64,000 bases of DNA from Candidatus Omnitrophota bacterium (GCA_963662715.1 OY759724.1:1690662-1754661), one strand, 5' to 3'. Counted from the stretch's first letter, positions 9,751 through 58,612 are shown. A program made the numbers and translations. The notes: generated from the letters alone by a model not told the origin.

Positions 9751-11190
9751 TTATAAGGACGGGTGTCCTGTGCCCTGGTCAGAAAAATACAGTTTTGTGT
9801 TTTTCCACGCAGACTTGACATGGTTCACGAATTGTTCCCAGAGATAAGATTGCCACCGTTCTTTGAATTCCAGCTTTTGAACGAGATTGTCAAGGTTGTA
9901 TATCTCTTCGGATTTTATAAACCCGTTATTATAATAGCTCCGGATAAGCCCGTGTAGTTTCCCTGATTTAAATGTCCCTTCCTGGAGAACCGCGCCATCT
10001 TCATAATACATTTTGTAAGGCCCTTCAAGCTGCCCGTCTTTAAAAGTGAATTGGACTTTAGGGTCCCCTTTCGGGTAATATTCCCAAACCACCCCGACAA
10101 CCTTGTCTTCATTGAAAGTCTTAACATAATGAAGATATCCATCGGTATAATACTCCTTGACCACGCCCTGCAGAAGGTCTGTTTTGTATTCCCCTTCGCG
10201 TTTAAGAACTCCGGTAACATAATATTCTTTGAAGGGGCCTTCCAGGTGCCCGTTGACGTAAGAGGCCTCCCGTGTCAGTTGTCCTTTCTTGTGGTATTCC
10301 AGCATCAGCCCGTTCAGGATGCCCTGCTCATAATTCACGTAGAGTTTCAGTTTGCCATTAGGGTAGTAAAACTTCCTTTCTCCGTGAATTTTTTCGTTTA
10401 GAATTTTTGTCTCTTCTTTCAGGGCGAAATTTTTATGAAAAATTTTGTATCCCTTCAACTCGCCGTTATCATAAATCATCTGCATGTAAATTTGCCCTTT
10501 TTCATCAACAACCTTGGCATCACCCTGCAGGACATTTTTCTGATAATTATAATAGTCCGTATCGCCGCTGTGATAATACCTGTTCTCTGAGCCGGTTTTT
10601 TCCCCGTTTCTGTAGCGGACCTTAAGCTTGGGCGTGCCATCCGGAAAATATTCTATGTAGACGCCATTAAGGACGCCTTTGCTGTAAAAACTTTCGATTT
10701 GCAGTTTCCCGTTGTCATAATATTCTTTCATGCTGCCGAATTTTTCTCCGTTTTTATAGCTGGTTTCCATCTTGAGAAAACCATTTTCATAATATTCCTT
10801 GTAAAAACCATCCAGGACGCCGTACTTGTATTCAGCTAATAATATGATCTGGGTGTTGGGGGCCGACTTCTTCATTGTCCCGTGCAGGACATCGTTCATG
10901 TATTCCCGGGACTCTTTGATTTGTCCATTTTCATAGTATGTGTTAAATCTTCCGTGTTTTTTCCCTTCGGAATAGTGAGAGACGTTTTTAAGGTTCCCGT
11001 TTTCGTAGTATTCGACAAAACGGCTGTTTTTTTTGCCGTCGGTGTATTTCCCTCTTTTCCAGACTTCCCCGTTGTCGAAATACACCGTATACCAGCCGTT
11101 AGGGGGGGCTTTATCTTCTGCTTTGAGAGCGGACGGCCCTGAGAGAAGGAGGATTAAGAGGATTGTCCATTGAACGGTCTTGGGTTTCAT
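9751..11190 (-). CDS. secreted MORN-variant (YwqK-like) repeat protein
   Basis: Signal peptide followed by about 18 tandem approximately 23-aa repeats of form YYxNGxLK...Y.NGK.HG. Confidence 0.65.
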   Translation of the reverse strand: MKPKTVQWTILLILLLSGPSALKAEDKAPPNGWYTVYFDNGEVWKRGKYTDGKKNSRFVEYYENGNLKNVSHYSEGKKHGRFNTYYENGQIKESREYMNDVLHGTMKKSAPNTQIILLAEYKYGVLDGFYKEYYENGFLKMETSYKNGEKFGSMKEYYDNGKLQIESFYSKGVLNGVYIEYFPDGTPKLKVRYRNGEKTGSENRYYHSGDTDYYNYQKNVLQGDAKVVDEKGQIYMQMIYDNGELKGYKIFHKNFALKEETKILNEKIHGERKFYYPNGKLKLYVNYEQGILNGLMLEYHKKGQLTREASYVNGHLEGPFKEYYVTGVLKREGEYKTDLLQGVVKEYYTDGYLHYVKTFNEDKVVGVVWEYYPKGDPKVQFTFKDGQLEGPYKMYYEDGAVLQEGTFKSGKLHGLIRSYYNNGFIKSEEIYNLDNLVQKLEFKERWQSYLWEQFVNHVKSAWKNTKLYFSDQGTGHPSL

Positions 11191-11193
11191 GGT

Positions 11194-12735
11194 TTATTTT
11201 CCGAGTGATAACGGGCCGGCGGTTAAACTGTCCCCTTGGATATTGTCTGTCTTAAATTCTTTAAGCAGACGGTAGAATTCTTTATAATAGCGTTTGATAT
11301 GACGGAAATATTGGTAAATTAATGAAATTTTGGGCTCCAACGGTTCCAGCTCCAAGACGATTTCCTTCATGACCTCATCCTGACTCATGTCCAGAGTCTC
11401 CTTGAACTGGTCCTTCAGCATTTCATGAAACTGCCGGAAGATATTGCTTTCGCTGAAAGGCATCTGATTGAACGTGTCTTGAAAGTATTTATGGACATGT
11501 TCTTTCTTGGAAAGAGCCGATTGAATGCATTCTGATTCATAGTGCTTTTGAGTGATCAGCATGGCCCGCCGTTTCCGGGCCGGGGTGAGGAAATTGTCTA
11601 ATTGAGCGAACTGTTCTGAAATGATCTGCAGAAAGAATTTATAGGGAAACTGAGTAAACCCCACGATGCCTTGTTGTGTTTTTCCCCGCTGGAGTTTCAG
11701 CAGGACATTGTCCATTTGCGCGAACGAATCGGAAAATATCTGGTAGCTGGGAAGAATAAGCTCGCTGTACAGTTTGTCCCGGCCGGAGAAAGGGGCCAGT
11801 TCATAGGTTATGAGGGCTTTAAACTCTTTAAGGTTTAAAGAATATAATAAAGGCAATCCGACGGCCAGCACCCTTTGTTTAATCAGGCCGTTGAAAGTGT
11901 TCAGATTGCTTTTGCGGACGATAACTTTAGGTTCTGCGTGCAGGATCAGAGTCTCGGGCGCAGGTATGCGAAGCACGATGCAAATTTCGTTGATGATTTG
12001 TTTGAGCCTGGGGTTCGTTTCGAGATTAATCACCAGACCCGGCTGAATGGGGGGGTCAAGGACAAAGGTCGTGTGTATCGTTTGGGTCGTGATCAAGATG
12101 CATATGGTTTGAATCAAGATAATAAAAATCCATATCAGTTGAGGCATGTCCGGACTGTTCTGCGCTAATAAAAGGAGCCATAAGGCGAAGCAGAGAGGGG
12201 ATAATATGAAAATAATAAAGCTTAAATAAACCATGGGGAAAGAGAGGATCGAAAACAGGAAGAGGAACAGGGAGATTTTATGCGATGCACTTGGGTCGAC
12301 CAGGATCTCTTCCGTGTCGTGGCGGATGTTCATGTCATCGCTGGATGAAGACATGGCGATATAGAGTCCTAAAAAGGCCCCGATCGCCGTGACACAGAGC
12401 CGCATCATGCTTTCGGTGAGTTCCAGAAGTTCCTGAGTGTTGCGAAAGATATCGAAATATAAGATCGCCAGAAAAAGCAGGCTTATAAAAAAAGTCCCGG
12501 CCAGCATTTTCAGCCTCTTTTTAACAAAAAGAAGGCTTAGCCATATAGCCGGAACGATCGAAACGGCATCGACCAGAATAAACTCGACCCCTGGAATTTT
12601 TTCCACGCGTAACCAGCTGGTAAAGTTGTCCAGGGAATTGACGAAGAAAAGGTAGATCAAGGCAAAGATGCAGGCAGAGAACGAGAGAGAAAGAAAGTCC
12701 AAGAATGAAAGCTGTTTATTGGCTTGTGGATTCAT
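11194..12735 (-). CDS. hypothetical polytopic membrane protein with C-terminal soluble domain
   Basis: Multiple hydrophobic helices in N-terminal half; no confident family assignment. Confidence 0.45.
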   Translation of the reverse strand: MNPQANKQLSFLDFLSLSFSACIFALIYLFFVNSLDNFTSWLRVEKIPGVEFILVDAVSIVPAIWLSLLFVKKRLKMLAGTFFISLLFLAILYFDIFRNTQELLELTESMMRLCVTAIGAFLGLYIAMSSSSDDMNIRHDTEEILVDPSASHKISLFLFLFSILSFPMVYLSFIIFILSPLCFALWLLLLAQNSPDMPQLIWIFIILIQTICILITTQTIHTTFVLDPPIQPGLVINLETNPRLKQIINEICIVLRIPAPETLILHAEPKVIVRKSNLNTFNGLIKQRVLAVGLPLLYSLNLKEFKALITYELAPFSGRDKLYSELILPSYQIFSDSFAQMDNVLLKLQRGKTQQGIVGFTQFPYKFFLQIISEQFAQLDNFLTPARKRRAMLITQKHYESECIQSALSKKEHVHKYFQDTFNQMPFSESNIFRQFHEMLKDQFKETLDMSQDEVMKEIVLELEPLEPKISLIYQYFRHIKRYYKEFYRLLKEFKTDNIQGDSLTAGPLSLGK

Positions 12736-22139: not shown

Positions 22140-22234
22140 AGCCTCTGACGCGGAAGGGCGGTGTCGCCCTGTTCGGTGATGCCGGGCATAACACAGACGG
22201 AACATAATATTTAAATTTGTACAAAGCAGGGAAT

Positions 22235-23158
22235 ATGAAGATTGTTTTTTTTGGCAGTGATGATTTTGCCGTTACGAATTTGGAGCAGCTTGTGCTTTCG
22301 GGACGGGAGATTGCCGCTTGTGTCACCCCTCCGGACAAGGCCAGGGGCCGGGGGATGCACACGCAGGCCTCTGAGGTCAAACAATGTGCCCGGCAGCACC
22401 GTATCCCCGTTTTTCAGCCGGAAGATATCAGCCAGAAGAGTTTTCTGGAGGATATTGCTTCATTGCGGAGCGACCTTTTTGTCGTCATTGCTTACGGGAA
22501 AATCCTTTCAAATGAACTTCTGGCCATCCCGCGGTTGTTTTCCGTAAATGTGCACGCATCCCTGCTGCCCCGTTATCGCGGTGCGGCTCCGGTCAATTGG
22601 GCCCTGATCCGGGGGGAGCAGGAGACAGGAGTTTCTGTTATTAAAATGAATCCTCAATTGGATGCCGGAGACATATTATCCCAGGCCCGTTTGAAGGTTG
22701 AAGATGCCGACACGGCTGTTTCTCTGCGGGCTAAATTGGCCCGTTTGGGTGCGGATTTGCTGAATCAAACAGTGGCCGATATTCAGGCCGGGCATGTTCA
22801 GGCTATTCCCCAAGATAAAAGTCAGGTGACGTTTGCTCCCAAGCTGACAAAAGATTTGGGGCTGATCCATTGGCAGGATTCCGCGTTTAAGATCCACAAC
22901 ATGGTCCGCGGCTTACAGCCATGGCCTTCTGCCTATACATTCTATAAAGATAAATTGTTGAAGATTCTGGAAACAGAAATCGTCGGTTCCTTCGGGGGAG
23001 TCCCCGGGACAATCGTGGAAATTCTGCCTTCGGGTTTTGTCCTGCAGACAGGGGACAAAAGCCTCCTGGTGAAGAAAGTCCATTTGGCGTCCGCAAAGGC
23101 CATGCCGGCCAAAGATTTTATTCTGGGACATCGGCTTGCTGTCGGGATGACATTCTGA
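22235..23158 (+). CDS. fmt: methionyl-tRNA formyltransferase
   Basis: MKIVFFGSDDFAV ... SLLPRYRGAAPVNWALI formyltransferase motifs. Confidence 0.8.
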   Translation: MKIVFFGSDDFAVTNLEQLVLSGREIAACVTPPDKARGRGMHTQASEVKQCARQHRIPVFQPEDISQKSFLEDIASLRSDLFVVIAYGKILSNELLAIPRLFSVNVHASLLPRYRGAAPVNWALIRGEQETGVSVIKMNPQLDAGDILSQARLKVEDADTAVSLRAKLARLGADLLNQTVADIQAGHVQAIPQDKSQVTFAPKLTKDLGLIHWQDSAFKIHNMVRGLQPWPSAYTFYKDKLLKILETEIVGSFGGVPGTIVEILPSGFVLQTGDKSLLVKKVHLASAKAMPAKDFILGHRLAVGMTF

Positions 23159-23215
23159 TGCCCGCCAAGGAAAGACTTTGGGAGAGATGGATCCCCCGGC
23201 TTTTTTTCTAATGCC

Positions 23216-26200
23216 ATGATCGTTTTTTTTATCGGAACAATATGTATTTCCGCCGGGTTGGGCACGATTGCCTGGCTTATGTGGAAGGAAAAAAGGATAG
23301 AAGACTCTATCCGCAAGAAAAACGCCCCGGTCTATAATCAGCCTGTCACAACCTCGGAGCTTTTGGACCGGATAGGTTTGCGCCGTGAGCCGCTACCGTC
23401 CCCGAATTCCCCCAAGGCTTCCCCGGGAGAAGAGTCGCTGGACGTTTTTTCCGCTTTAGATGATACGAATAAAGAAGATATCAACAAGGCTCTGGAACTT
23501 TCAATCCAACATGATGATTTAACGAAAGAACACCGCCATATGCAGGAGCATCATGAGAGGCTGCAGGCGTTGATTGTTGATAAGAAACGTATTTTAAAGA
23601 ACACGCGCAGAGCTCTGCGCAGCGAACGCCGGTATATTCAGGAGTTTGACCATATGCGGGACCGTTTGAATCATAAGATCGAAACAGCGAAGGAAGAGCG
23701 CCGGATGATTCAAAATAATCTTAAAGAAAAACAGGCTTCAGGCCGGGCTTTTCTGACGCGTGTCAATAATTTGGAACAAAGAATTAAAGAGCTGGAGACC
23801 TCTTTCCGGGAAAAGGAGCTGGCCATCAAGGATAGTATGATAACAGTCCAGAAAGACCAGAAGCGGGCTGCTGAAATAAAAGAGAAGATACAGGAAAGAG
23901 AAAAGACCGTTCAGGAAAAAAGCGATAAATTGCTGGATTTGATCGGCCGGATAAAAAAGAGAGGCGATACGGCCATGGAATATGTCCGGCAGCAGATCGG
24001 TATTGATATCCGGATATGGGAGGAAGAACTCTTGGCGCCGCCGGTCGTCGAAATTCCTGAGCCGGAAGAGAAAATGGTCCCGGCCGGGGAAGCTGCCGGT
24101 GAAGGCCTGGAAGCCGAACAACCTCTTGAAGAGGGCGTTGAGGCGGCCGCTCAGGAAGCCGTCCCCGTTGCCGGGGAGGCCCAGCCTGTGCCAGAAGAAC
24201 GGGGAGGGGATGCTGTCCTGGCTGATGTCCGGAACATCGGGATTATCGCTCATATCGATGCCGGTAAAACGACGACCACGGAAAGAGTCCTTTATTATAC
24301 CGGGGTCATTCATAAAATGGGGACGGTCGATCAGGGTAATGCGACAATGGACTGGATGGCCCAGGAGCAGGAACGGGGGATTACGATCACATCGGCCAAT
24401 ACCACATGTTTTTGGAAAGGCAAGAAAGTGAACATCATCGACACTCCCGGACACGTTGATTTTACGGTTGAGGTAGAGCGTTCCCTGAAGGTTCTTGACG
24501 GGGCGGTTGTTGTGCTGTGCGCCACAAGCGGCGTGCAGTCTCAGACAGAGACGGTATGGCGGCAGGCCGACCGGTATCATGTCCCGAGGATATTTTTTAT
24601 TAATAAAATTGACCGTATGGGTGCGGACTTTTTCCGGGTGCTTGAACAGATTGAAGACCGTATCGGAGCTAATGTGGCGGCCGTCCAGATCCCTGACGGC
24701 ACGGAAGACCAGTTTAAAGGCATTGTGGATGTGATCCATCAGAAGTATATCCATTACCTTGATGACGAAGGAATGAAGTTCGAGGAACAGGACATCCCGG
24801 AACCCCTGAAAGCGAAAAGCCAGGAGGTGCGCAAGATCCTGTTGGAAAGATTGTCCACGTGTGATGACGATATCATGGAAAAAATGCTGGCAGAACAGGA
24901 AATCTCCGCAGAAGACATTGTCCCTGCGATCCGGCGCGCTGTTGTTAAAAACGCCTTTTTCCCCGCTTTGGTCGGAACAGCCCTGCGCAACCGCGGGGTG
25001 CAGAAAGTCCTCGATGCCATTGTGGATTACCTGCCTTCGCCGTTGGAGGTTCCTCCGGTGTCCGGGACACGGCCCAGGACAGAGGAAACCCTTGAACGGC
25101 ATCCTTCGGTCGCGGAACCTCTTAGCGCGTTGGTTTTTAAGATTGCCTCCGATCCTTATGTCGGGAAGTTGTTCTATACCCGGATTTATTCCGGAATCAT
25201 TGAATCCGGAGGCACGGTTTACAACTCATCCTCAGGCAAGCGGGAGCGCGTTGCGAAGATCGTTGTGATGCATGCCAATAAGCAGGAAATTGTCCCGCGC
25301 GCCGGTGCCGGGGAGATCGTCGCTTTAGTCGGCCTTAAGACAACGAAATCCGGTGATACGCTGTGCGCTGAGAACCAACCCATCCTCTTGGAAAGTATTG
25401 AATCTCCGGAGCCGGTTATCTCAATGGCCATTGAACCGCAAACCAAGGCGGACCAGGATAAGATGGGGCTTATTTTAAGGAAATTCCTCGATGAAGACCC
25501 GTCATTGAGGATGTCCTATGATCATGAGACCGGCCAGACACTCCTGTCCGGGATGGGGGAACTGCATTTGGAGATTATTATCGACCGTATGAAACGGGAA
25601 CATAACCTAGAGACGAATATCGGACGTCCGCAGGTCGCTTACCGGGAGACGATTAAAGAGAAAGTGGAGAAAATCGAGGGCAAATTTATTTCCCAGACAG
25701 GCGGTCGCGGGCAATACGGGCATTGTGTTATTGAAATGGAACCCAGTGAAAAACCGGGAGACGGAATTAAATTTATCGATAAAATCAAAGGGGGCGTCAT
25801 CCCGCGCGAATATATCCCTTCCGTTGAGAAAGGCATCAATGCCGGTTCGGAAAGCGGTATTCTGGCCGGGTATCCGGTCACGGACTTTACTGTGACTCTC
25901 GTTGACGGGTCTTTTCATGAGGTTGATTCGAGTGACATTGCTTTTCAGCTCGCGGCCAAGGCCGCCCTTAAAGAAGGGCTGAGGCGCGGAAAATCCGTAT
26001 TCCTTGAACCGATCATGAAGCTGGAATGTGCCGTCCCGGAAGAATTCATGGGAGCGGTGATCGGGGATTTAAACAGCCGCCGGGCTAAAATTATTAATAT
26101 GGGCGTGCAGGGAAAGTTAAAGACGGCTTTGTGTGAAGTCCCCTTATCAGAAATGTTTAATTATGCCAATGCCCTGCGTTCTTTAACTCAAGGGCGGGCG

Positions 26201-26308
26201 TCTTTCTCCATGGAGCCCTGTTTTTATGCGGAAGTTCCCTATCATATTTCTGAAAAAATAAAAGCGGAGAGGGAAGAATTGATGAAGAAAAAGGAAGATG
26301 GGAAATAG
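23216..26308 (+). CDS. elongation factor G homolog with 335-aa N-terminal extension (TM helix, coiled coil, acidic Pro/Ala/Glu linker)
   Basis: Uninterrupted 1030-codon ORF; residues about 336-1030 are complete EF-G ([33 protein letters not shown] domain IV tip); N-terminus starts with hydrophobic helix then K/E/R-rich heptad-like sequence. Confidence 0.7.
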
Positions 26309-26397
26309 GCCGCCCGTTCAAAAGCGCTTAAAGCCGTCTTTTTTTTCTTCGGACGCCTTTGTCGCGGAAAAAAAATTTTCGCAATCCTATTTTTTAT

Positions 26398-26425
26398 TTG
26401 CATCCCATTCCCTTTGTGATATAAT
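26398..26425 (+). promoter_or_regulatory. candidate sigma70 promoter (TTGCAT, 16-nt spacer, TATAAT) with about 160-nt leader
   Basis: Consensus-like hexamers upstream of galT-like gene pair. Confidence 0.3.
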
Positions 26426-26588
26426 TCGTTAACTTTTCATAAAGGCATGACTTGCGAACCGACGGAATTAAGGAAGCGGGCACATTCTGGAACATGTTTC
26501 GTCGCTGAGAGAAACGGGTCGGTCGTTTGCTGAAAATATCAGCCCCCTGAGCAAATTTTATTAACTGGTATTTAAGGGTGTTTTATTT

Positions 26589-27608
26589 ATGCCAGAATTT
26601 CGTAAAGATCCCGTAATTGGCCGTTGGGTGATTATTGCGACGGAACGGGCCAGACGCCCGGGAACGATTATTGATCCTCAGCGCGTCGATAAAAAAGACT
26701 CTCAAGAGTGTCCTTTCTGCCATAACCAAGAGCCGGAGATATACACCGTCCCCAATAAAGACCCTCAAGCCTCCAGCCCCTGGAGTGTTAAGGTGACTCC
26801 CAGCGGGACTCCGTTATTAAAAATGTCGCCTCAGTTCAAACGCCGGGGCCACGGACTTTATGATGTCATTAATGATTACGGAGTGCATGAGGTCGTGATA
26901 GAAACTCCGGATCATATCGCGAATATGGCTGATTTGAGTGAAAAGCAGATCGCGTATGTGATGAATACCTATGTCTACCGTTTTAAGGAGTTAAGCCAGA
27001 ACAAAAATTTTCTTTATGTGATTGCCTATAAGAATTACGGCTGGGCCGCAGGCAGCCGTAATATCGGACATTCCCGTTCCCAAATTATCGCTTCCTCTGT
27101 GAATCCTTTGGCTGTGAAAGAACAAATGTCCCGGGCTAAAAAGTATTTTGATTATCATGACCGGTGTTTGTTCTGTGACCTGATCCGTCAGGAAAAAAAT
27201 GACAGGAAGCGGGTTGTGACCGAGTCGGAGCATTTTATCGCTATTACACCCTTTGCCCCCAGGTTTTCCTTTGAAATATGGATCCTTCCCAAAGAGCATC
27301 ATTGTGATTTTGTGCATGGCGTGGCGGGCAAGGAACTCGATTTAGCCAGAATTCTCAAAGATACGTTAACGCGGTTGAAAATCGGGCTGGCGGATCCGTC
27401 CTACAATTATGTTATTCAAACGGCGCCGTTCCGCAGTCAGGAGCGGGGGGCCCGCTGGCCGACCATTGAAGAGGATTATCATTGGCATATTGAAGTTATG
27501 CCCCGTTTAACCCGGGTGGCCGGATTTGAGAAAGGCTCCGGATTTTATATTTGTTCTATCCCCCCCGAACACACGGCGGAATTTTTAAGGGAGGTAGAGT
27601 TGTCATGA
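26589..27608 (+). CDS. GalT-like hexose-1-phosphate uridylyltransferase paralog 1 (HIT branch III), catalytic HxH degenerate (GHSRSQ)
   Basis: RKDPVIGRWVIIA N-terminus, CxxC zinc motif, but HPHGQ-equivalent reads HSRSQ. Confidence 0.65.
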   Translation: MPEFRKDPVIGRWVIIATERARRPGTIIDPQRVDKKDSQECPFCHNQEPEIYTVPNKDPQASSPWSVKVTPSGTPLLKMSPQFKRRGHGLYDVINDYGVHEVVIETPDHIANMADLSEKQIAYVMNTYVYRFKELSQNKNFLYVIAYKNYGWAAGSRNIGHSRSQIIASSVNPLAVKEQMSRAKKYFDYHDRCLFCDLIRQEKNDRKRVVTESEHFIAITPFAPRFSFEIWILPKEHHCDFVHGVAGKELDLARILKDTLTRLKIGLADPSYNYVIQTAPFRSQERGARWPTIEEDYHWHIEVMPRLTRVAGFEKGSGFYICSIPPEHTAEFLREVELS

Positions 27609-28612
27609 GTGAATTACGCCGTGATCCTATTATCGGCCGGTGGGCGATCGTTGCGGATAAAGAAGAATCCTGGGGACCGGATAATTACGATAAGGAAGTT
27701 CACGAACGTAAACATAAGGCCATCTGTCAGTTTTGTCCCGGCCGGGAGAAACAAACACCTCCGGAAGTTGACGCCATCCGGCCGCAGGGATCGGCTCCGA
27801 ATAAACCGGATTGGATAGCGCGGGCCGTCTCCAATAAATTTCCTGCTTTGCGTATTGAAGGTAATTTGGACAAACGTGCGGACGGTATTTATGATGTGTC
27901 TAACGGTGTGGGGGCGCATGAAGTTCTTATTGAAACGCCGGATCATGACCGGGATTTGGCGGATTTGTCCGTCGATGAGATTGTGAATGTTATCCGTCTG
28001 GCCCAAAGCCGGTCTATAAGTCTTGCCAAAGACCGGAGATTCAAGTATATTATGCTCTTCAAGAATTACGGGCAGTCCGCAGGAACGTCCATTGAGCATG
28101 CCCACAGTCAAATTATTGCTTTGCCCCTGGTGCCCCGTTATGTCCTGGAGGAGCTGGAAGGTTCTTTGAACTATTTTAAATTCCGGGGTCGCTGCATCTA
28201 TTGTGATATTATTGCCCAGGAACAGCAGGAGCAGGAAAGAATCATTTTGGATAACGAGGCGTTTATTTCTTTCTGTCCCTATGTCCCGAGATATCCTTTC
28301 GAGTGCTGGATCCTGCCGAAAGAACATTCCTCGGATTTTTGCTATCTGTCGGATCATGACCGCCATCAACTGGCGTTGACCTTGCAGGACGTGTTAAAGC
28401 GGATAAAAACGACTTTAAAAGATCCGTCTTATAATTTTTATTTGCATGTTCCCCCGGTCAATTACAAGGAGTCACAGAGTTACCACTGGCATATTGAAAT
28501 TGTTCCGCAGTTAAGCCGGGTCGCAGGTTTTGAATGGGGGACGGGGTTTTATATCGTCCGTACGGAACCCGGGGTCGCGGCTGAAACACTACGCAATTAT
28601 TCTCCGGAATAG
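27606..28612 (+). CDS. GalT-like hexose-1-phosphate uridylyltransferase paralog 2, catalytic motif intact (HAHSQ)
   Basis: ATGA overlap with paralog 1; RRDPIIGRWAIVA, CQFC, EHAHSQIIA. Confidence 0.65.
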
Positions 28613-28656
28613 GTCTTTGAGGTAAAACAAGAGAAAAAAATGAGTATAATTATTAA

Positions 28657-29673
<1,017 letters not shown>

Positions 29674-39423: not shown

Positions 39424-40314
39424 ATGGATTTCCAGGGGACAGTGGCTTTATTGGGGACAGGATTGCTGGGGGCAGCCTTGGCTGAAAGATTGCTCGAAAG
39501 AAAGCAACCTTTGGTCGTTTATAACAGAACTCCGGAAAAACTGTCTGCTTTGAAAAATTTGGGGGCGGAATCCTTTGAGACTCCGCAGGAGGCCATCCGG
39601 CGGGCGTCTGTTATTATTTTAATGTTAAGCGACAGCCGGGCCATTGAGGAGGTCCTTTTCCCTGACGGCTTTAAGAATTTTTCCGGGAAAACATTCATTC
39701 AGATGGGGACAATTGCTCCGGCTGAAAGCCAGCGTCTCCTGTCCCGGATTCAAAGCCTGAACGGTGAGTATTTTGAATGTCCTGTCCTGGGCAGTATCCC
39801 GGAGGCCAGGTCCGGGAATTTAATCCTTATGGCCGGGGCGTCTGAGGAACAGTTCTTGCGGTGGAGGGATTTTCTGTCCTGTTTTGGTCCCCGTCCGAGA
39901 CGGGTCGGTGCGGTCGGGCAGGCTGCGGCTATGAAACTGGCGCTGAACCAGCTTATTGCCGCCCTCGTATGCTCGTTTTCTGTATCCCTCGGTATTGTTG
40001 AAAAAAGGAGCATAGATGTTCAGCAGTTTATGGATGTGTTGCGGGAGAGTGCCTTGTACGCCAAGATGTTTGACAAAAAACTGCCCCGGATGCTTAAGAG
40101 AAATTTTGTTCAGCCCAATTTCCCCGTTAAACATCTTCTTAAGGATGTTCTTTTGATCCTGGATGAGATCGATAAAAATCAAATTTCGCCACTGCAAACA
40201 GCGGGCGTAAAAGGTATAATTGAAGAGGCTTTGCAGGAAGGGTTGGCGGAACAAGACTATTCGGCTGTTTTTAATGTCATCTGTCCGCGGACAGATTCGG
40301 GAGACAGGCCCTGA
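39424..40314 (+). CDS. NAD(P)-dependent beta-hydroxyacid dehydrogenase family oxidoreductase
   Basis: N-terminal VALLGTGLLGAALA Rossmann motif, 6PGDH-like C-terminal. Confidence 0.65.
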   Translation: MDFQGTVALLGTGLLGAALAERLLERKQPLVVYNRTPEKLSALKNLGAESFETPQEAIRRASVIILMLSDSRAIEEVLFPDGFKNFSGKTFIQMGTIAPAESQRLLSRIQSLNGEYFECPVLGSIPEARSGNLILMAGASEEQFLRWRDFLSCFGPRPRRVGAVGQAAAMKLALNQLIAALVCSFSVSLGIVEKRSIDVQQFMDVLRESALYAKMFDKKLPRMLKRNFVQPNFPVKHLLKDVLLILDEIDKNQISPLQTAGVKGIIEEALQEGLAEQDYSAVFNVICPRTDSGDRP

Positions 40315-40315
40315 T

Positions 40316-41629
40316 ATGTTCTTAAAATCAAAACATTATCACATTAAAGGAGCTGTTTTGGAAAAAGGTCAACGTGTGCAGGGTATAAGAGTGGTGGCGG
40401 GGCTTCTTGTTATTTCAAACCTCCTTGTCCTTGTTTTTCACTATATACTTCCCCATTTTTTTCAGCAGCAGATTTTTGAGGCGTTTATCCCTTTTATCTC
40501 CACTCTGGCCGTTTTCCCGTTTGATTTTTATCAATCTTACCTTGTCCAGCAATGGGGCGCTCAGGTGGGCTGGATACTGGTGATACTCCTTTGCGCCTGG
40601 GGGATTCTTATCCATAAACAGTGGGCCCGCATGACTCTGATCGTGCTGGGAATTATCCATTGTATTATCCTCGCTTTCATTGTCATCATGAAGCTGAACC
40701 AGTGGTATGTGATTATGCTGCAGTATTGTTTCCGTCTTTATTTCAACCTGGTGGCTATCGGGTCTTATATCGGATTTTTGACCATGTATGAAGTCCGGAG
40801 CCAATTCGTTTCAGACCCGTTTTTTGACAAGGTGAATTTTTTGTTCAGGAAATTGTTCTGGAGGAACACCCCGATCGCCAGCGCCAGAGGTTATTACAAC
40901 TTGGGGTTGGCTTATCGGCGGTTAGAACGCTTTTCGGATGCTTTGCATTTCCTGGGGAGAGCCGTTGCCGAAGAACCGCGCAACGCGCATTTCCATTTTG
41001 AGCTGGGCCAGACACATTTTTTGCTGAGACATTGGCAGGAAGCCGTCGAGTCTTTTCAGAAAGCCGCGGCGTGTGATGTTGTTTTTCTCCCGGCGTATAT
41101 TTTCCTGGGACGCGCCTTTCTTAATCAAGGCTGTGCGCAAGAGGCGGTCGCGGCGTTTTTGAAGGCCTCTCACGTGAGAAACGAAGACGGTGAAATATAT
41201 TATTACCTGGGAGTGGCCTATCAGCAGGGGGCGAACATGACAGAAGCCGAAGACGCTTTCCGGGAAGCGGTTCAGAAGGGCTTTCAATCCGTGGACAATT
41301 ATTACCGTCTGGGGCAGGTGCTTTTCCATCATCTGGAAAAATATCATGAGGCCGAAAGCGCGTTGCTGAAAGCCGTGCAGGTTGATAAGAATCATACGGA
41401 AGCCCATTTCCTTTTAGGGTTAACGGCTATTAAGCTGTTGAAATATAAAGAAGCTATCCGTTCCTTTAAGAACACCCTTTCGCTAAGCCCTGAGCATAAC
41501 CAGGCTCATTACCAGCTCGGTTTTTCTTACGCGATGATCGAAGACTTTGATTCGGCCCGCCGGGAATATTCTTACTTGCTGTCCGCGGATAAGGATTTAG
41601 CCGAAACTTTAAAACTGGTGTTGAAGTGA
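40316..41629 (+). CDS. membrane protein with C-terminal TPR repeats
   Basis: Several TM helices then multiple TPR-like 34-mers (YYNLGLAY..., YYYLGVAYQ..., HFLLGLT...). Confidence 0.55.
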   Translation: MFLKSKHYHIKGAVLEKGQRVQGIRVVAGLLVISNLLVLVFHYILPHFFQQQIFEAFIPFISTLAVFPFDFYQSYLVQQWGAQVGWILVILLCAWGILIHKQWARMTLIVLGIIHCIILAFIVIMKLNQWYVIMLQYCFRLYFNLVAIGSYIGFLTMYEVRSQFVSDPFFDKVNFLFRKLFWRNTPIASARGYYNLGLAYRRLERFSDALHFLGRAVAEEPRNAHFHFELGQTHFLLRHWQEAVESFQKAAACDVVFLPAYIFLGRAFLNQGCAQEAVAAFLKASHVRNEDGEIYYYLGVAYQQGANMTEAEDAFREAVQKGFQSVDNYYRLGQVLFHHLEKYHEAESALLKAVQVDKNHTEAHFLLGLTAIKLLKYKEAIRSFKNTLSLSPEHNQAHYQLGFSYAMIEDFDSARREYSYLLSADKDLAETLKLVLK

Positions 41630-41639
41630 TTCAAGACAT

Positions 41640-42665
41640 ATGAAGAAGATACTGCTTATCGGCCTGGCCGTCCTGGCGGCCGTTTTGGCGCATGATGTTC
41701 TTGGCGCCGAGACCACACATCCCGGGGACACCCGCCGTCACCGGGCACAGGCTGTAAATGCCTCTGCTCTTTCTGCCGCCCCGGCGCCTCGCCCTGACGC
41801 TGACGGGACCTCGCAGAATCAATCACCGGCGTTCCCCGAAGAGATAGAATCCGCGGATTTGATGAAATTAATCCCTCTTCATCAAATCAAGACAGCCCCG
41901 GGGCCGTATGACTGGCTGGCCACGCACCCGGAACCCGGCCAGGATTTTGATGATTACATCTCGTCGAGTCCCGTATCGCCGGACGCTGAGAGGAAATGTA
42001 TCTATATCGTTCTGTTGGGGGATTTTGACTCTGTCAGAAAAACGATCATTGAAAAGACAGCGAGGTTTATCCAGGCGTATTATACATTGCCCGTCAGATT
42101 CCTGCCGCCGATACCCATGTCTGTTATCCCCCCGGAAGCCAGGCGAGTGCATCCGCAGACCCGGGATAAGCAGATCCTGACAACGTACGTTCTGGAATCC
42201 TTGTTAAAGCCCCTTGCCCCGGAAGACGCCTTTTGTCTGATTGCCTTTACCTCCTCGGATTTATGGCCGGGAGAGGGCTGGAACTTTGTTTTCGGACAGG
42301 CGTCCTTGCCCGACAGGTTAGGGGTCTGGTCTGTTTACCGTAACGGCGACCCTCACGAAAGCGATGAGATGTACCGCTTATGTCTTTTGCGGAGCATCAA
42401 AACGGGGGTGCATGAAATCGGGCATATGTTTTCCATGCATCATTGCATATATTTTGAATGTAATATGAACGGGAGCAATCACCGGCAAGAAAGTGACAGC
42501 CGGCCCGTCTGGCTGTGTCCTGTTTGCTTAAGAAAATTGCTCTGGGCGGTTCATGAAAATCCGGTTGAACGTTATAAAAATCTTGTTGAAATTTGTGAGG
42601 AATTCGGGTTAATGGCTGAGAAAAAATTTTTTGAAAGGTCCATTGAACTTTTGACGAGCCCCTGA
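41640..42665 (+). CDS. secreted archaemetzincin-like zinc metallopeptidase (M54-like)
   Basis: Signal peptide; HEIGHMFSMHHCIYFECNM...CPVC matches HExxHxxGx3Cx4CxM...CxxC archaemetzincin signature. Confidence 0.6.
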   Translation: MKKILLIGLAVLAAVLAHDVLGAETTHPGDTRRHRAQAVNASALSAAPAPRPDADGTSQNQSPAFPEEIESADLMKLIPLHQIKTAPGPYDWLATHPEPGQDFDDYISSSPVSPDAERKCIYIVLLGDFDSVRKTIIEKTARFIQAYYTLPVRFLPPIPMSVIPPEARRVHPQTRDKQILTTYVLESLLKPLAPEDAFCLIAFTSSDLWPGEGWNFVFGQASLPDRLGVWSVYRNGDPHESDEMYRLCLLRSIKTGVHEIGHMFSMHHCIYFECNMNGSNHRQESDSRPVWLCPVCLRKLLWAVHENPVERYKNLVEICEEFGLMAEKKFFERSIELLTSP

Positions 42666-42878
42666 ATGAATTTCGTTTTTGCGGGACAGAAGAAAAGGTT
42701 TGCCGGGATTGTTCAGGCAACGGAAAAATTTGAGATAACAGGATAAGATTGCAACATGTTGTTATACAAGTATTTATGTTTTATACGCAAGAAACGCTAA
42801 ACACTATTTTGCTGAAGAGATATATTGTGCTATAATTTATATAAACAGGATTCTTTAAATATAAAGGATGATCTTTCC

Positions 42879-43757
42879 ATGCTGCACCGCCTAAACCGTA
42901 ACAATGCCCAATCAATGATAGAGTATGTCACTGTGGCGACGCTGGTTATGATTGGTATCTTAGTTATGGGTCCTTATGTCACCCGTTCCATTAATGCCTT
43001 TTTTAAAAATATTGAAGATGATGTGGATGATGCTTTTAAGGAAGAGATGACGCAGGGTGATCCGAGCGTAGAGCTTCCTGACTGTTATTGCACGAACTTA
43101 GTGGACCAGGCGTGCGGGGGCGGGGGCTGTAACAGCCGGCAGATGTGGTTAAGAAGAGACTGCTATCCTCTGGGCTGTGAAATTGCTTATCAAGCCGCAA
43201 ATCCGGGCTGGATTTATGAAGATTGCGAATACCGCGACTATTGCTGTACGAACTGGGCGGAAACCGGTCTTTGCGGCGTTAATGCGACTGTCCCGGGCGC
43301 ATGCCCGAATGGAGAAATGGAATATGAACATTATTGCGGGGCGGCAAATACCCGGACCGTTGTGTGCCAGAGCACGTGTCAGGGGCAGGTGGGCTGTCCG
43401 GCGCCGCCGCATCCGCTGTGTATATTTTTCTGTACAGACACGGCAGGAAATGAAGTCACTCCTGCGATGCTGCCTTTCGCATCGTATTGTACAGATGATA
43501 CAACAGACTTGCCCGGTAATCTGGTCGTAACCTTTGTGCCAAACGGAGCCTGTACTGACCCGCTTAAATGTGAAGCGGAATGTTATTCGGGGTTTGTCCC
43601 GGCGGCAACCTGGGGGTGCACATGCCCGCCCCATTCACATGCGGTCGGTAATCACTGTGTTTGTGACCCGGGATATTTCTTCCGTGATGGGTGTAATTCG
43701 GATGAATGCTTGCAGGACGGCTGCCCGGCCGGCCGGTGCTACGGCATCCTGTTCTAG
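42879..43757 (+). CDS. Flp/TadE-like class III leader fused to about 240-aa cysteine-rich (about 38 Cys) domain
   Basis: N-terminal NAQSMIEYVTVATLVMIGIL resembles Flp prepilin motif; remainder extremely Cys-rich; start trimmed to MLHRLNR with AAAGGA RBS. Confidence 0.5.
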   Translation: MLHRLNRNNAQSMIEYVTVATLVMIGILVMGPYVTRSINAFFKNIEDDVDDAFKEEMTQGDPSVELPDCYCTNLVDQACGGGGCNSRQMWLRRDCYPLGCEIAYQAANPGWIYEDCEYRDYCCTNWAETGLCGVNATVPGACPNGEMEYEHYCGAANTRTVVCQSTCQGQVGCPAPPHPLCIFFCTDTAGNEVTPAMLPFASYCTDDTTDLPGNLVVTFVPNGACTDPLKCEAECYSGFVPAATWGCTCPPHSHAVGNHCVCDPGYFFRDGCNSDECLQDGCPAGRCYGILF

Positions 43758-43921: not shown

Positions 43922-44599
43922 GTGAATTTTATGTACCAGGAATATATTGATAAATTTTTTGAGAAGTATCCCAAATACCGGCCGCTTTTTGAGAAAGCCA
44001 AAGAAGAGAAATATTCCATTCTGTTGGGATTCCTGATTCTGCTGGCGATTATCCCCATATTTTGCTCGTCCGGCAAACCCCGCATATATTATAACGAAAC
44101 TTTTGGTTATCAAATCCTCATCCCGCCTCAATGGCGGGACAAGCTCTCTGCTGATAAACGTGTCCTCACCTTAAAGAAGCGTCAGAGAAGGAGTTTGGGA
44201 AAGGCGGAGATAAAAGTCCACGTTGATGTGGGGAACCCTTACGGGACAAAACCTTTTGATTATGCTTATTACGGTCTTCTGCCCCGGGTAAAATATATGT
44301 ATGCAAAGAAGGGGCGTAAAGAATTTACGATCCGCGATTATCCGTACACGAAAATATTCAGCGGTAAAGAATGGGGGGTTTTGGCTTTTACCCTTGATTA
44401 TAAAGATCTGTATGTCATGTATGTCACTCAAAAAGGTGACTTTGTTTTTGTCTTTACTTTAATCACTTCCGGAGTAAAACAAAAAGAAGCTGAGGCCGAT
44501 TTCCAGGGCATTGTCCGTTCAGTCTTGATTGAGCGCAGGGAACGGGTCAATGTTTTTACCGACCCTGAGGCTGATGTCCTTTTTTCGCATCCTTTATAA
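43922..44599 (+). CDS. hypothetical membrane-anchored protein
   Basis: ORF with single TM helix; no known domain. Confidence 0.4.
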   Translation: MNFMYQEYIDKFFEKYPKYRPLFEKAKEEKYSILLGFLILLAIIPIFCSSGKPRIYYNETFGYQILIPPQWRDKLSADKRVLTLKKRQRRSLGKAEIKVHVDVGNPYGTKPFDYAYYGLLPRVKYMYAKKGRKEFTIRDYPYTKIFSGKEWGVLAFTLDYKDLYVMYVTQKGDFVFVFTLITSGVKQKEAEADFQGIVRSVLIERRERVNVFTDPEADVLFSHPL

Positions 44600-44624
44600 T
44601 TAAAAGCCGGTTTTTTAAAAAGAA

Positions 44625-44663
44625 AGCATCCCGTTCGTTCATTGGACGGGATGCTTTTCTTCT
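44625..44663. terminator. bidirectional Rho-independent terminator between convergent genes
   Basis: Perfect 10-bp stem AGCATCCCGT/ACGGGATGCT flanked by A-run upstream and TTTCTTCT downstream. Confidence 0.55.
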
Positions 44664-58091: not shown

Positions 58092-58607
58092 ATGTCGAGA
58101 TCAAAGTCTGATATAGCTAACAGTGCAATAAGAATATTTTTGCAAGATGTTGGTAGATTTTATGACCAAGCCAGGGGTTTTGACCCCTTTATTCCAAAGA
58201 AAAATCAAAAAGAAGAACTATTGTCTTATTTTGAAAGTCAATGTTGCTTTTGCGGCTCTGAAATTAATCAGAAGTCTTTCTCACTGGATCATTTAATACC
58301 CTTGAATAAAGCTTCTTTAGGTCTTCATGCTTGGGGAAACGTGGTCCCTTGTTGTAGGGACTGCAATAATGAAAAGCAACAAAAACCTTGGCAAAATTTT
58401 ATGAAATTAAAGTGTAGGGGCTCAGAATATAAGAAAAGAAGATCTCGAATTGAAAATTTTATAAAAATAAAAAAATATGATCCAAACCTTAATTTACATG
58501 AATATGCAGATAATTTATATGAAGATGTTGGTGAGGTAGCTACAACACTTATTAAACTTCGGTATAAACAAGCGGAAGACGGCATTAAAAACTTATTAGG
58601 AAAATAA
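58092..58607 (+). CDS. cassette 4: HNH endonuclease
   Basis: CCFCGSEI ... SLDHLIPLNKASLGLHAWGNVVPCCRDCNNEKQ canonical HNH; RBS AAAGGAAG. Confidence 0.7.
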   Translation: MSRSKSDIANSAIRIFLQDVGRFYDQARGFDPFIPKKNQKEELLSYFESQCCFCGSEINQKSFSLDHLIPLNKASLGLHAWGNVVPCCRDCNNEKQQKPWQNFMKLKCRGSEYKKRRSRIENFIKIKKYDPNLNLHEYADNLYEDVGEVATTLIKLRYKQAEDGIKNLLGK

Positions 58608-58612
58608 ATACA

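Follow-up and report, generated by a model that had tools for sequence, protein, structure and literature searches.

Organization of the gene

A stretch of 64,000 nucleotides (nt) from a Candidatus Omnitrophota bacterium (GCA_963662715.1 OY759724.1:1690662-1754661), referred to below as the window, carries a gene for a cysteine-rich, pilin-like protein at positions 42879-43757. The gene is the one long open reading frame (ORF) on the plus strand there. It starts with an ATG at 42879, ends with a stop codon at 43755-43757, and encodes 292 residues. The parts of the gene are listed below with a promoter-like element. HMM stands for hidden Markov model, and pLDDT is the predicted local distance difference test score of AlphaFold2.

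42879..43757, plus strand: modular Flp-type pilin-like gene, including the stop codon
42828..42836, plus strand: extended -10-like element TGcTATAAT, read from the sequence, 42 nt before the start codon (consensus match only)
42879..42908, plus strand: predicted leader peptide, residues 1-10 (MLHRLNRNNA), with the putative A10/Q11 cut taken from the hhalign register
42909..43031, plus strand: Flp-like pilin module, residues 11-51 (short-pilin HMM, hhalign, AlphaFold helix)
43032..43082, plus strand: acidic linker, residues 52-68 (34% mean pairwise identity, pLDDT 56-65)
43083..43628, plus strand: conserved cysteine-rich core, residues 69-250 (23 Cys, pLDDT 85-96)
43629..43754, plus strand: variable cysteine-rich C-terminal tail, residues 251-292 (6 Cys, 26% mean pairwise identity, low pLDDT)

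An AAGGA Shine-Dalgarno-like site lies about 11 nt 5' of the ATG, and all homologues start at the equivalent ATG. A promoter scan placed a promoter-like site, also a consensus match only, at 42798-42826, and an Rfam search of the window found no RNA element. The window gene and three orthologues were compared in pairs; where dS was estimable, the ratio of nonsynonymous to synonymous substitution rates (dN/dS) is 0.06-0.11, indicating purifying selection. The predicted mature protein consists of 282 residues (30.5 kDa). The full-length protein of 292 residues belongs to no Pfam or NCBIfam family (Pfam searched to E ≤ 1).

The N-terminal module corresponds to a Flp pilin

The N-terminal sequence is MLHRLNRNNA/QSMIEYVTVATLVMIGILVMGPYV, where the slash indicates the predicted cleavage site. 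The segment NNA/QSMIEY is followed by VTVATLVMIGILVMG, and Gln11, Glu15, and Tyr16 occupy positions +1, +5, and +6, respectively. The module is characterized by a hydrophobic α1 helix and a conserved YV.RSINA.FK segment, and its hydrophobic stretch comprises 19 residues with a mean Kyte-Doolittle value of 2.0.

The leader pattern [KR][KN][AG]/QS[IM]IEY...Y.RS.NA..K also heads Omnitrophota proteins of 47-60 residues, which are encoded in arrays of 3-9 pilin-like genes. Arrays with enough flanking sequence lie 3' of the gene for a TadZ-CpaF fusion ATPase of about 720 residues, the family of which is annotated as TadA/CpaF in the source databases. The cluster at locus L025 is a Tad cluster by Pfam. 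It contains RcpC/CpaB, a secretin with T2SS-T3SS_pil_N, a TadG-like protein (PF13400), and two single-T2SSF proteins of the TadB/TadC type, and its ATPase is a ParA-like TadZ fused to T2SSE (CpaF). Two short-pilin loci are labelled Dehalococcoidia and "bacterium".

An HMM was built solely from 11 Omnitrophota pilins of 47-60 residues, one of which comes from the Pfam-confirmed Tad cluster. Among the 1,168 ORFs of the window, the HMM matches residues 7-51 of the protein with 44.8 bits (E 2.9e-13) and gives no second match. The N-terminal modules of the Omnitrophota proteins were also compared by hhalign with annotated Flp pilins, for which two Phyllobacterium plasmid genes annotated as "Flp family type IVb pilin" served as the reference. 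The profiles align over 42 columns with a probability of 92.6% (E 4.6e-7). Ala10 is placed on the cleavage-site Gly (-1) of the Flp motif G/ATAIEY, Glu15 on Glu+5, and Tyr16 on Tyr+6, and the alignment reaches the C-terminus of the Flp pilin. Judging from this alignment, the counterpart of residues 11-51 is an entire Flp pilin and not just its signal peptide.

Among Pfam families, Flp_Fap (PF04964) ranks first for the isolated N-terminus (14.9 bits, E 0.024) and for three of the six short pilins tested, and it scores 23.3 bits with the long relative at L015. The N_methyl motif (PF07963) gave no match at E ≤ 1 or E ≤ 10, and a PDB sequence-profile search with the pilin module gave nothing meaningful. 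An earlier note on this DNA, made from the sequence by a model, had described the N-terminus as a class III (Flp/Tad) signal, and the short-pilin HMM and hhalign support this description by homology beyond the motif. The label TadE-like in the same note is not supported, as neither PF07811 nor PF13400 matches at E ≤ 1.

The conservation of the module should be noted. Glu+5 is present in all homologues with an intact N-terminus, and the -1 position is A, G, or S across the family. The long forms also share a conserved Gly-Pro pair, at +21/+22 of the mature protein, which is found in none of the short pilins. The mean pairwise identity is 50% in the helix module, 34% in the linker, and 28% in the cysteine-rich core when cysteines are excluded. 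Since the helix is more conserved than the head outside the cysteines, specific helix contacts are favoured over a generic membrane anchor.

Some features of the Omnitrophota Tad clusters are recorded here in their own right. The TadZ (ParA/MinD-like)-CpaF (T2SSE) fusion at L025 4694-6850 is of a very common type, with 7,999 database clusters at E ≤ 1e-20. In searches with the TadZ-CpaF profile and with P0142, a Chloroflexi-type tandem CpaF, the 120 top matches of about 8,000 included no protein from the 3,360,633-bp contig to which the window belongs. The Tad secretins (L025 3044-4690; L016 13337-15022) have a C-terminal TonB_C domain (PF03544) fused to Secretin and T2SS-T3SS_pil_N. After a TadE-like gene, the Tad operons encode a pilin-like protein of 426-491 residues with 26-42 cysteines (L025 13020-14441; L069, L076, L077). 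The L025 protein, with 30 cysteines, was considered as a relative of the head described below and rejected, as hhalign aligns the leader region only, with a probability of 20%. Judged by the L025 copy, proteins of this type appear to form a second, independent cysteine-rich pilin-like family.

The cysteine-rich head

The protein has 29 cysteines, all within residues 69-287. They amount to 13% (29 in 224 residues) of the cysteine-rich part and 9.9% of the protein, compared with 1.55% in the window ORFs of at least 150 residues (binomial P ~5e-15). Across 19 homologues, 18 cysteines are invariant or nearly invariant, and these lie within the core (residues 69-250), while the tail (residues 251-292) is swapped or extended with other modules in relatives. 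The spacings between cysteines are irregular, and CxxC pairs are few. The orthologues have a 30th cysteine, which sits in the leader. The earlier description of a 240-residue domain with about 38 cysteines stands as to a large cysteine-rich domain with CxC, CC, and CxxxC spacings, and the count is corrected to 29 by translation.

AlphaFold2 with an alignment of the 19 homologues gave a model with a mean pLDDT of 81.9, which was taken instead of an unusable run on a five-sequence alignment (pLDDT 50.6). In the model, residues 8-54 form a helix, the linker has low confidence, and the head, at about residues 70-260, is β-rich with pLDDT values of 85-96. The predicted head has no match in PDB. The best Foldseek hit there has an E value of 0.63 with TM-scores of at most 0.24, and the best hit in BFVD has an E value of 0.014 and a TM-score of 0.12. 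A PDB sequence-profile search with the whole family gave 0 matches at E ≤ 1. A likeness of the head to EGF or metallothionein, suggested earlier from its cysteine patterns, is not borne out by Pfam (no match at E ≤ 1), NCBIfam (0 families), or Foldseek against PDB. The head is a confidently predicted cysteine-dense domain without a detectable known relative in Pfam, NCBIfam, PDB, or BFVD. In literature searches on cysteine-rich Omnitrophota proteins and on modular pilins, no paper on this family turned up.

Distribution and genomic context of the relatives

A word-indexed search across 5.8 billion proteins yielded five relatives, and phmmer, run exhaustively with the cysteine-rich part as the sole query, found 24 clusters among 1.84 billion cluster representatives. 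Most of the matches fetched at full length have a pilin-like leader followed by the cysteine-rich domain from about residue 50-90. Pattern scans of genome and metagenome collections added more distant members. Nearly all records that name an organism are metagenome-assembled genomes (MAGs) or single-amplified genomes of Omnitrophota; other labels are "uncultured Planctomycetales" (several) and Candidatus Zapsychrus exili (one). The homologue search reveals a rare family, found essentially only in Omnitrophota among the collections searched.

An HMM of the head domain alone, which matched none of 820 composition-matched shuffles, was used to recognize homologous heads in the distant relatives. 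The E values are 9e-13 (L007), 2.5e-11 (L013), 2.3e-10 (L045), 1.4e-8 (L009), 1e-7 (L036), 9e-7 (L014), and 3e-6 (L011). The genes at L014 and L036 are divergent to pilM-pilN-pilO-pilP-pilQ, and the same divergent arrangement is found at L010, L038, L040, and L044. The gene at L009 directly follows genes for an N_methyl pseudopilin, T2SSK, a PilM-PilN fusion, and a TPR protein. At L016 and L043, the gene lies immediately 5' of CpaB, secretin, and TadZ-CpaF of a Tad cluster, and these two proteins have the pilin module alone in common with the window protein. The head HMM misses the cysteine-rich modules at L016, L043, L047, and L048, and these four were dropped as evidence on the function of the head. 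Several longer relatives carry a further module, joined to the head or standing in its place: Laminin_G_3, a ConA-like lectin, in L009; the phage tail-fibre adhesin Gp38 in P0011; Gly_rich_2 in L045; and PT-HINT in L016.

Individual loci show further features. At L007 528-2627, in the Candidatus Zapsychrus exili MAG, two adjacent ORFs match the head HMM (E 9e-13 and 3e-6), and the leader appears to be split off by a stop codon or a frameshift; a tandem duplication or an assembly error is possible. At L011 (92-6487), the gene for a cysteine-rich pilin of 541 residues lies directly 3' of fmt, two similar ORFs, GAPDH, and an ORF of 177 residues. The two similar ORFs share the N-terminal motif MPE.RKDPV.GRWVIIATERARRPG. 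This gene set is also present in the window at 22217-29673 (22-30 kb), and L011 may be a positional orthologue without the TPR-M54 gene pair described below. P0006, a relative with 44% identity (L033 11188-15784), adjoins an HxsD-like gene and several radical-SAM genes in an arrangement that resembles a peptide-maturation cluster; the genes on the L033 contig are fragmented, and frameshift errors are likely. The L016 protein (10007-11416), encoded directly 5' of the Tad cluster, consists of a Flp-like leader, a region with 51 cysteines, and a pretoxin HINT domain (PF07591, 73.8 bits). PT-HINT usually precedes toxin domains, and about 45 residues follow it in this protein.

Genes next to the pilin-like gene

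The neighbouring features in the window are as follows.

40220..41629, plus strand: TPR-repeat protein with multiple transmembrane segments and an uncertain start codon, separated by 10 bp from the M54 gene that follows
41640..42665, plus strand: archaemetzincin-like Peptidase_M54 protein (PF07998, 44 bits against a cut-off of 24.4)
43922..44599, plus strand: hypothetical membrane-anchored protein of 225 residues, the downstream neighbour
44622-44658: strong terminator-like hairpin after the 43922..44599 gene (terminator scan)

The gene directly 5' of the pilin-like gene had been taken for an archaemetzincin-like secreted protease, in agreement with the PF07998 score and with its signal-peptide-like N-terminus, which is accompanied by a low-complexity spacer of about 100 residues. 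Its translation contains HEIGHMFSMHH, fitting HExxHxxGxxH, and a downstream CxxxC...CPVC pattern. With the NCBIfam model archmetzin the score is 85.6 bits, short of the cut-off of 145. Archaemetzincins are generally considered to be cytoplasmic proteins. The M54 protein is a possible part of the pilin system.

The order of the TPR, M54, and cysteine-rich pilin genes is conserved in orthologues of 65-68% identity and also in the 44% relative at L030. The M54 adjacency is kept at L001-L006, L034-35, and L030. The order is broken at L033 (P0006, the other 44% relative named above), and the adjacency is also missing from the distant relatives with fetched flanks (L009-L016, L036-L048). The downstream protein (43922-44599) has no Pfam match. 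At L001 and L032, a hypothetical protein of similar size (220-230 residues), also without a Pfam match, follows the homologue; the likeness is one of size and position.

Comparison with known pilins and pilin-like proteins

The window protein shares with the Flp/Fap pilins (PF04964) a short basic leader, a small -1 residue, Glu+5, Tyr+6, and the hydrophobic helix that follows, and the profile-profile alignment spans essentially the whole Flp pilin. In several relatives, related short paralogues stand in arrays behind the TadZ-CpaF ATPase. Unlike the Flp/Fap pilins, which have about 40-60 residues in the mature form, the window protein has 282 residues, about 225 of which form a globular, cysteine-rich head. 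It is further set apart by its Ala at -1, its Gln at +1, the conserved Gly-Pro at +21/+22, and a sub-threshold Pfam score, and its gene has no tad locus around it in the 64-kb window.

Modular pilins are known in the type IVa (T4a) class. Streptococcus sanguinis PilB has a vWA module and PilC a lectin module, and CofB of enterotoxigenic Escherichia coli is another example (PMC8179133). Lectin modules (Laminin_G_3/PF13385) are common among the modular pilins, and a location at the filament tip has been proposed (PMC8179133). The survey from which this picture comes was keyed on the T4a-type IPR012902 (PMC8179133). The window protein is built in a similar way, with a pilin carrier, a short linker, and a bulky module, for which the filament tip would be expected. 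It has a leader and a hydrophobic tract within a helix predicted at residues 8-54, and the Laminin_G_3/PF13385 lectin module occurs in its relatives. The differences lie in the carrier, which is a minimal Flp helix without the IPR012902/PF07963 motif, not a full α-β pilin fold, and in the grafted head, which belongs to no known family. As a probable modular pilin of the Flp class, the protein would combine the known Flp carrier with a head domain not described before.

TadE, TadF, and TadG, which are thought to be minor or tip pilins, are likewise larger pilin-like proteins with Flp-like processing sites, and the Omnitrophota Tad operons hold TadE-like proteins, one with 30 cysteines (L025 13020-14441). 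The window protein differs from them in having no PF07811 or PF13400 match and a gene outside a tad operon, and the cysteine module of the L025 protein is not homologous. Archaeal class III signal proteins (PF04021; QxSxExxxL) resemble the window protein in Gln+1, in A, G, or S at -1, and in Glu+5, and their leaders can also precede large extracellular domains. Unlike these, the window protein is bacterial, has no PF04021 match, and shows homology across the whole Flp pilin.

Proposed function and alternative explanations

We consider it probable that the gene encodes an orphan modular Flp-type (Tad-class) pilin, minor or at the tip, that presents a new adhesin-like cysteine-rich head. Such a pilin is likely to comprise three parts: a basic leader of 10 residues, the Flp module of residues 11-51, and a short acidic linker leading to the globular cysteine-rich head of about 225 residues. 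This assignment draws on the pilin-module homology, on the helix-plus-head architecture, on the conserved cysteines, and on relatives that have adhesin-type modules and a pilus-linked gene context. The earlier proposal of a disulfide- or metal-stabilized pseudopilin or adhesin tip fits this context and these accessory modules once its EGF/metallothionein part is set aside.

Omnitrophota encode Tad and T4a systems, and these have been associated with predation or dependence on a host (PMC10066038). In the proposed mechanism, the hydrophobic α1 segment would insert the protein into the inner membrane, and a prepilin peptidase would cut off the leader between Ala10 and Gln11. The Flp module would dock by its helix and the conserved Glu+5 into a type IV filament, built by a Tad or T4a machine whose genes would lie in another part of the genome. 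Most likely, the protein would be located at the filament tip or be sparsely incorporated, because the head is too large to pack as a repeating subunit. The head, presumably stabilized by disulfides, may act as a ligand-binding (adhesin) module.

Several observations speak against this assignment. The Flp_Fap score of the isolated N-terminus is lower than the gathering cut-off of 32.2 bits, and the full-length protein has no match. The 29 cysteines of the mature protein are an odd number, with which full disulfide pairing is impossible; at least one cysteine must be unpaired or be a ligand. Tad is reported to be largely missing from some Omnitrophota classes (PMC10066038). At -1, the protein has Ala instead of the Gly of canonical Flp pilins. 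The cysteine-rich forms are always the sole pilin-like gene at their locus and never lie inside pilin arrays. The conserved immediate neighbours of this subfamily are the TPR protein and the M54 protease, not pilus genes. No Tad, type IV pilus, secretion ATPase, prepilin-peptidase, or other pilin-like gene was found in the 64-kb window, and a scan of the window and all fetched loci for the A24 motif GxGD[VIAL]K found nothing.

The Ala residue at -1, the solitary occurrence, the lack of pilus genes in the window, and the TPR-M54-cysteine-rich gene order, conserved down to 44% identity, would also suit a membrane-anchored periplasmic protein in which the Flp-derived segment stays uncut and acts as a type II signal anchor; the 19-residue hydrophobic stretch could serve as its transmembrane helix. 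The cysteine-rich domain would then act together with the M54 and TPR neighbours, either periplasmically or at the inner membrane, and could be, for instance, their substrate, inhibitor, or partner. We regard such an anchor as unlikely, and its joint work with the neighbours as equally so. Glu+5, Tyr+6, and YV.RSINA are conserved far beyond the needs of a simple anchor, and the M54 adjacency is missing from P0006 and from the distant relatives. Moreover, in other subfamilies the gene adjoins pilMNOPQ or Tad genes, and the proteins bear modules typical of surface display, namely lectin or Gp38. The solitary gene is also consistent with an envelope or surface protein that is processed by a prepilin peptidase and exported by a pilin-like route without becoming a filament subunit. 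By analogy, such a protein could be modelled on the archaeal class III "bindosome" substrate-binding proteins or on cargo of a pseudopilus of the type II secretion system (T2SS). The leader does resemble the archaeal class III motif in its Gln+1 and in the A, G, or S found at -1, one operon pilin weakly matches PF04021 Class_IIIsignal (E 0.051), and the gene at L009 lies in a T2SS-like (T2SSK) cluster. However, the established bindosome precedent is archaeal, not bacterial, no bindosome-like assembly genes were seen, and the alignment of the module takes in a complete Flp pilin with its C-terminal part, not a signal peptide alone. We therefore judge export of this kind improbable, and either of its two models no less so.

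The cysteines themselves allow another explanation, in which the domain would be a metal-binding or redox module (metallothionein-like, zinc-ribbon-like, or Fe-S) for metal sequestration or electron transfer. An anaerobic life, as assumed for many Omnitrophota, would make extensive disulfides less obvious. The cysteine content of 13% in the domain and the odd number of mature cysteines point in the same direction. Against this, no metal-binding family of Pfam or NCBIfam matches, the fold is predicted with confidence to be β-rich, unlike metallothioneins, and the cysteine spacings are irregular with few CxxC pairs. The predicted topology, furthermore, puts the domain outside the cytoplasm, and relatives pair it with adhesin-type modules. 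A metal or redox role is accordingly very improbable in our judgement.

The assignment as a modular Flp-type pilin would matter in several respects. Flp pilins are usually viewed as minimal one-helix subunits, and the source of the binding specificity of Tad pili is poorly understood. A Flp module with a head of 225 residues would show that Tad-class subunits can be functionalized like the T4a modular pilins. The gene would also be a concrete candidate for a host- or prey-attachment molecule of Omnitrophota, a group with no isolate, whose inferred symbiotic or predatory lifestyle rests largely on Tad and type IV pilus genes (PMC10066038). A wider idea, which we offer tentatively and consider rather doubtful, is that the Flp helix is a universal Omnitrophota carrier for interchangeable heads, including the cysteine-rich fold, ConA-like lectins, Gp38-like tips, and PT-HINT. 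The carrier genes would be orphans or lie beside Tad or T4a (pilMNOPQ) machinery. If so, the ultra-small, putatively predatory or parasitic Omnitrophota would recognize their hosts or prey by receptor-binding proteins at the pilus tip, as phages do by tail fibres, and Flp-class subunits would be compatible with more than one kind of type IV filament machine.

Other features of the window

Two features lie apart from the pilin-like gene. At 23216-26308 on the plus strand, an EF-G-like protein of 1030 residues is encoded, with all EF-G domains at residues 337-1014 and an N-terminal extension of about 330 residues that starts with a hydrophobic, transmembrane-like segment. Two near-identical elements of the IS110 family are present at 58603-59935 and 61772-63105 (99% over a 300-nt stretch). 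Each copy encodes a DEDD transposase of 350 residues on the minus strand (58788-59840 and 61957-63009), and further short repeats lie near the copies at about 60553-60732 and 63130-63749.

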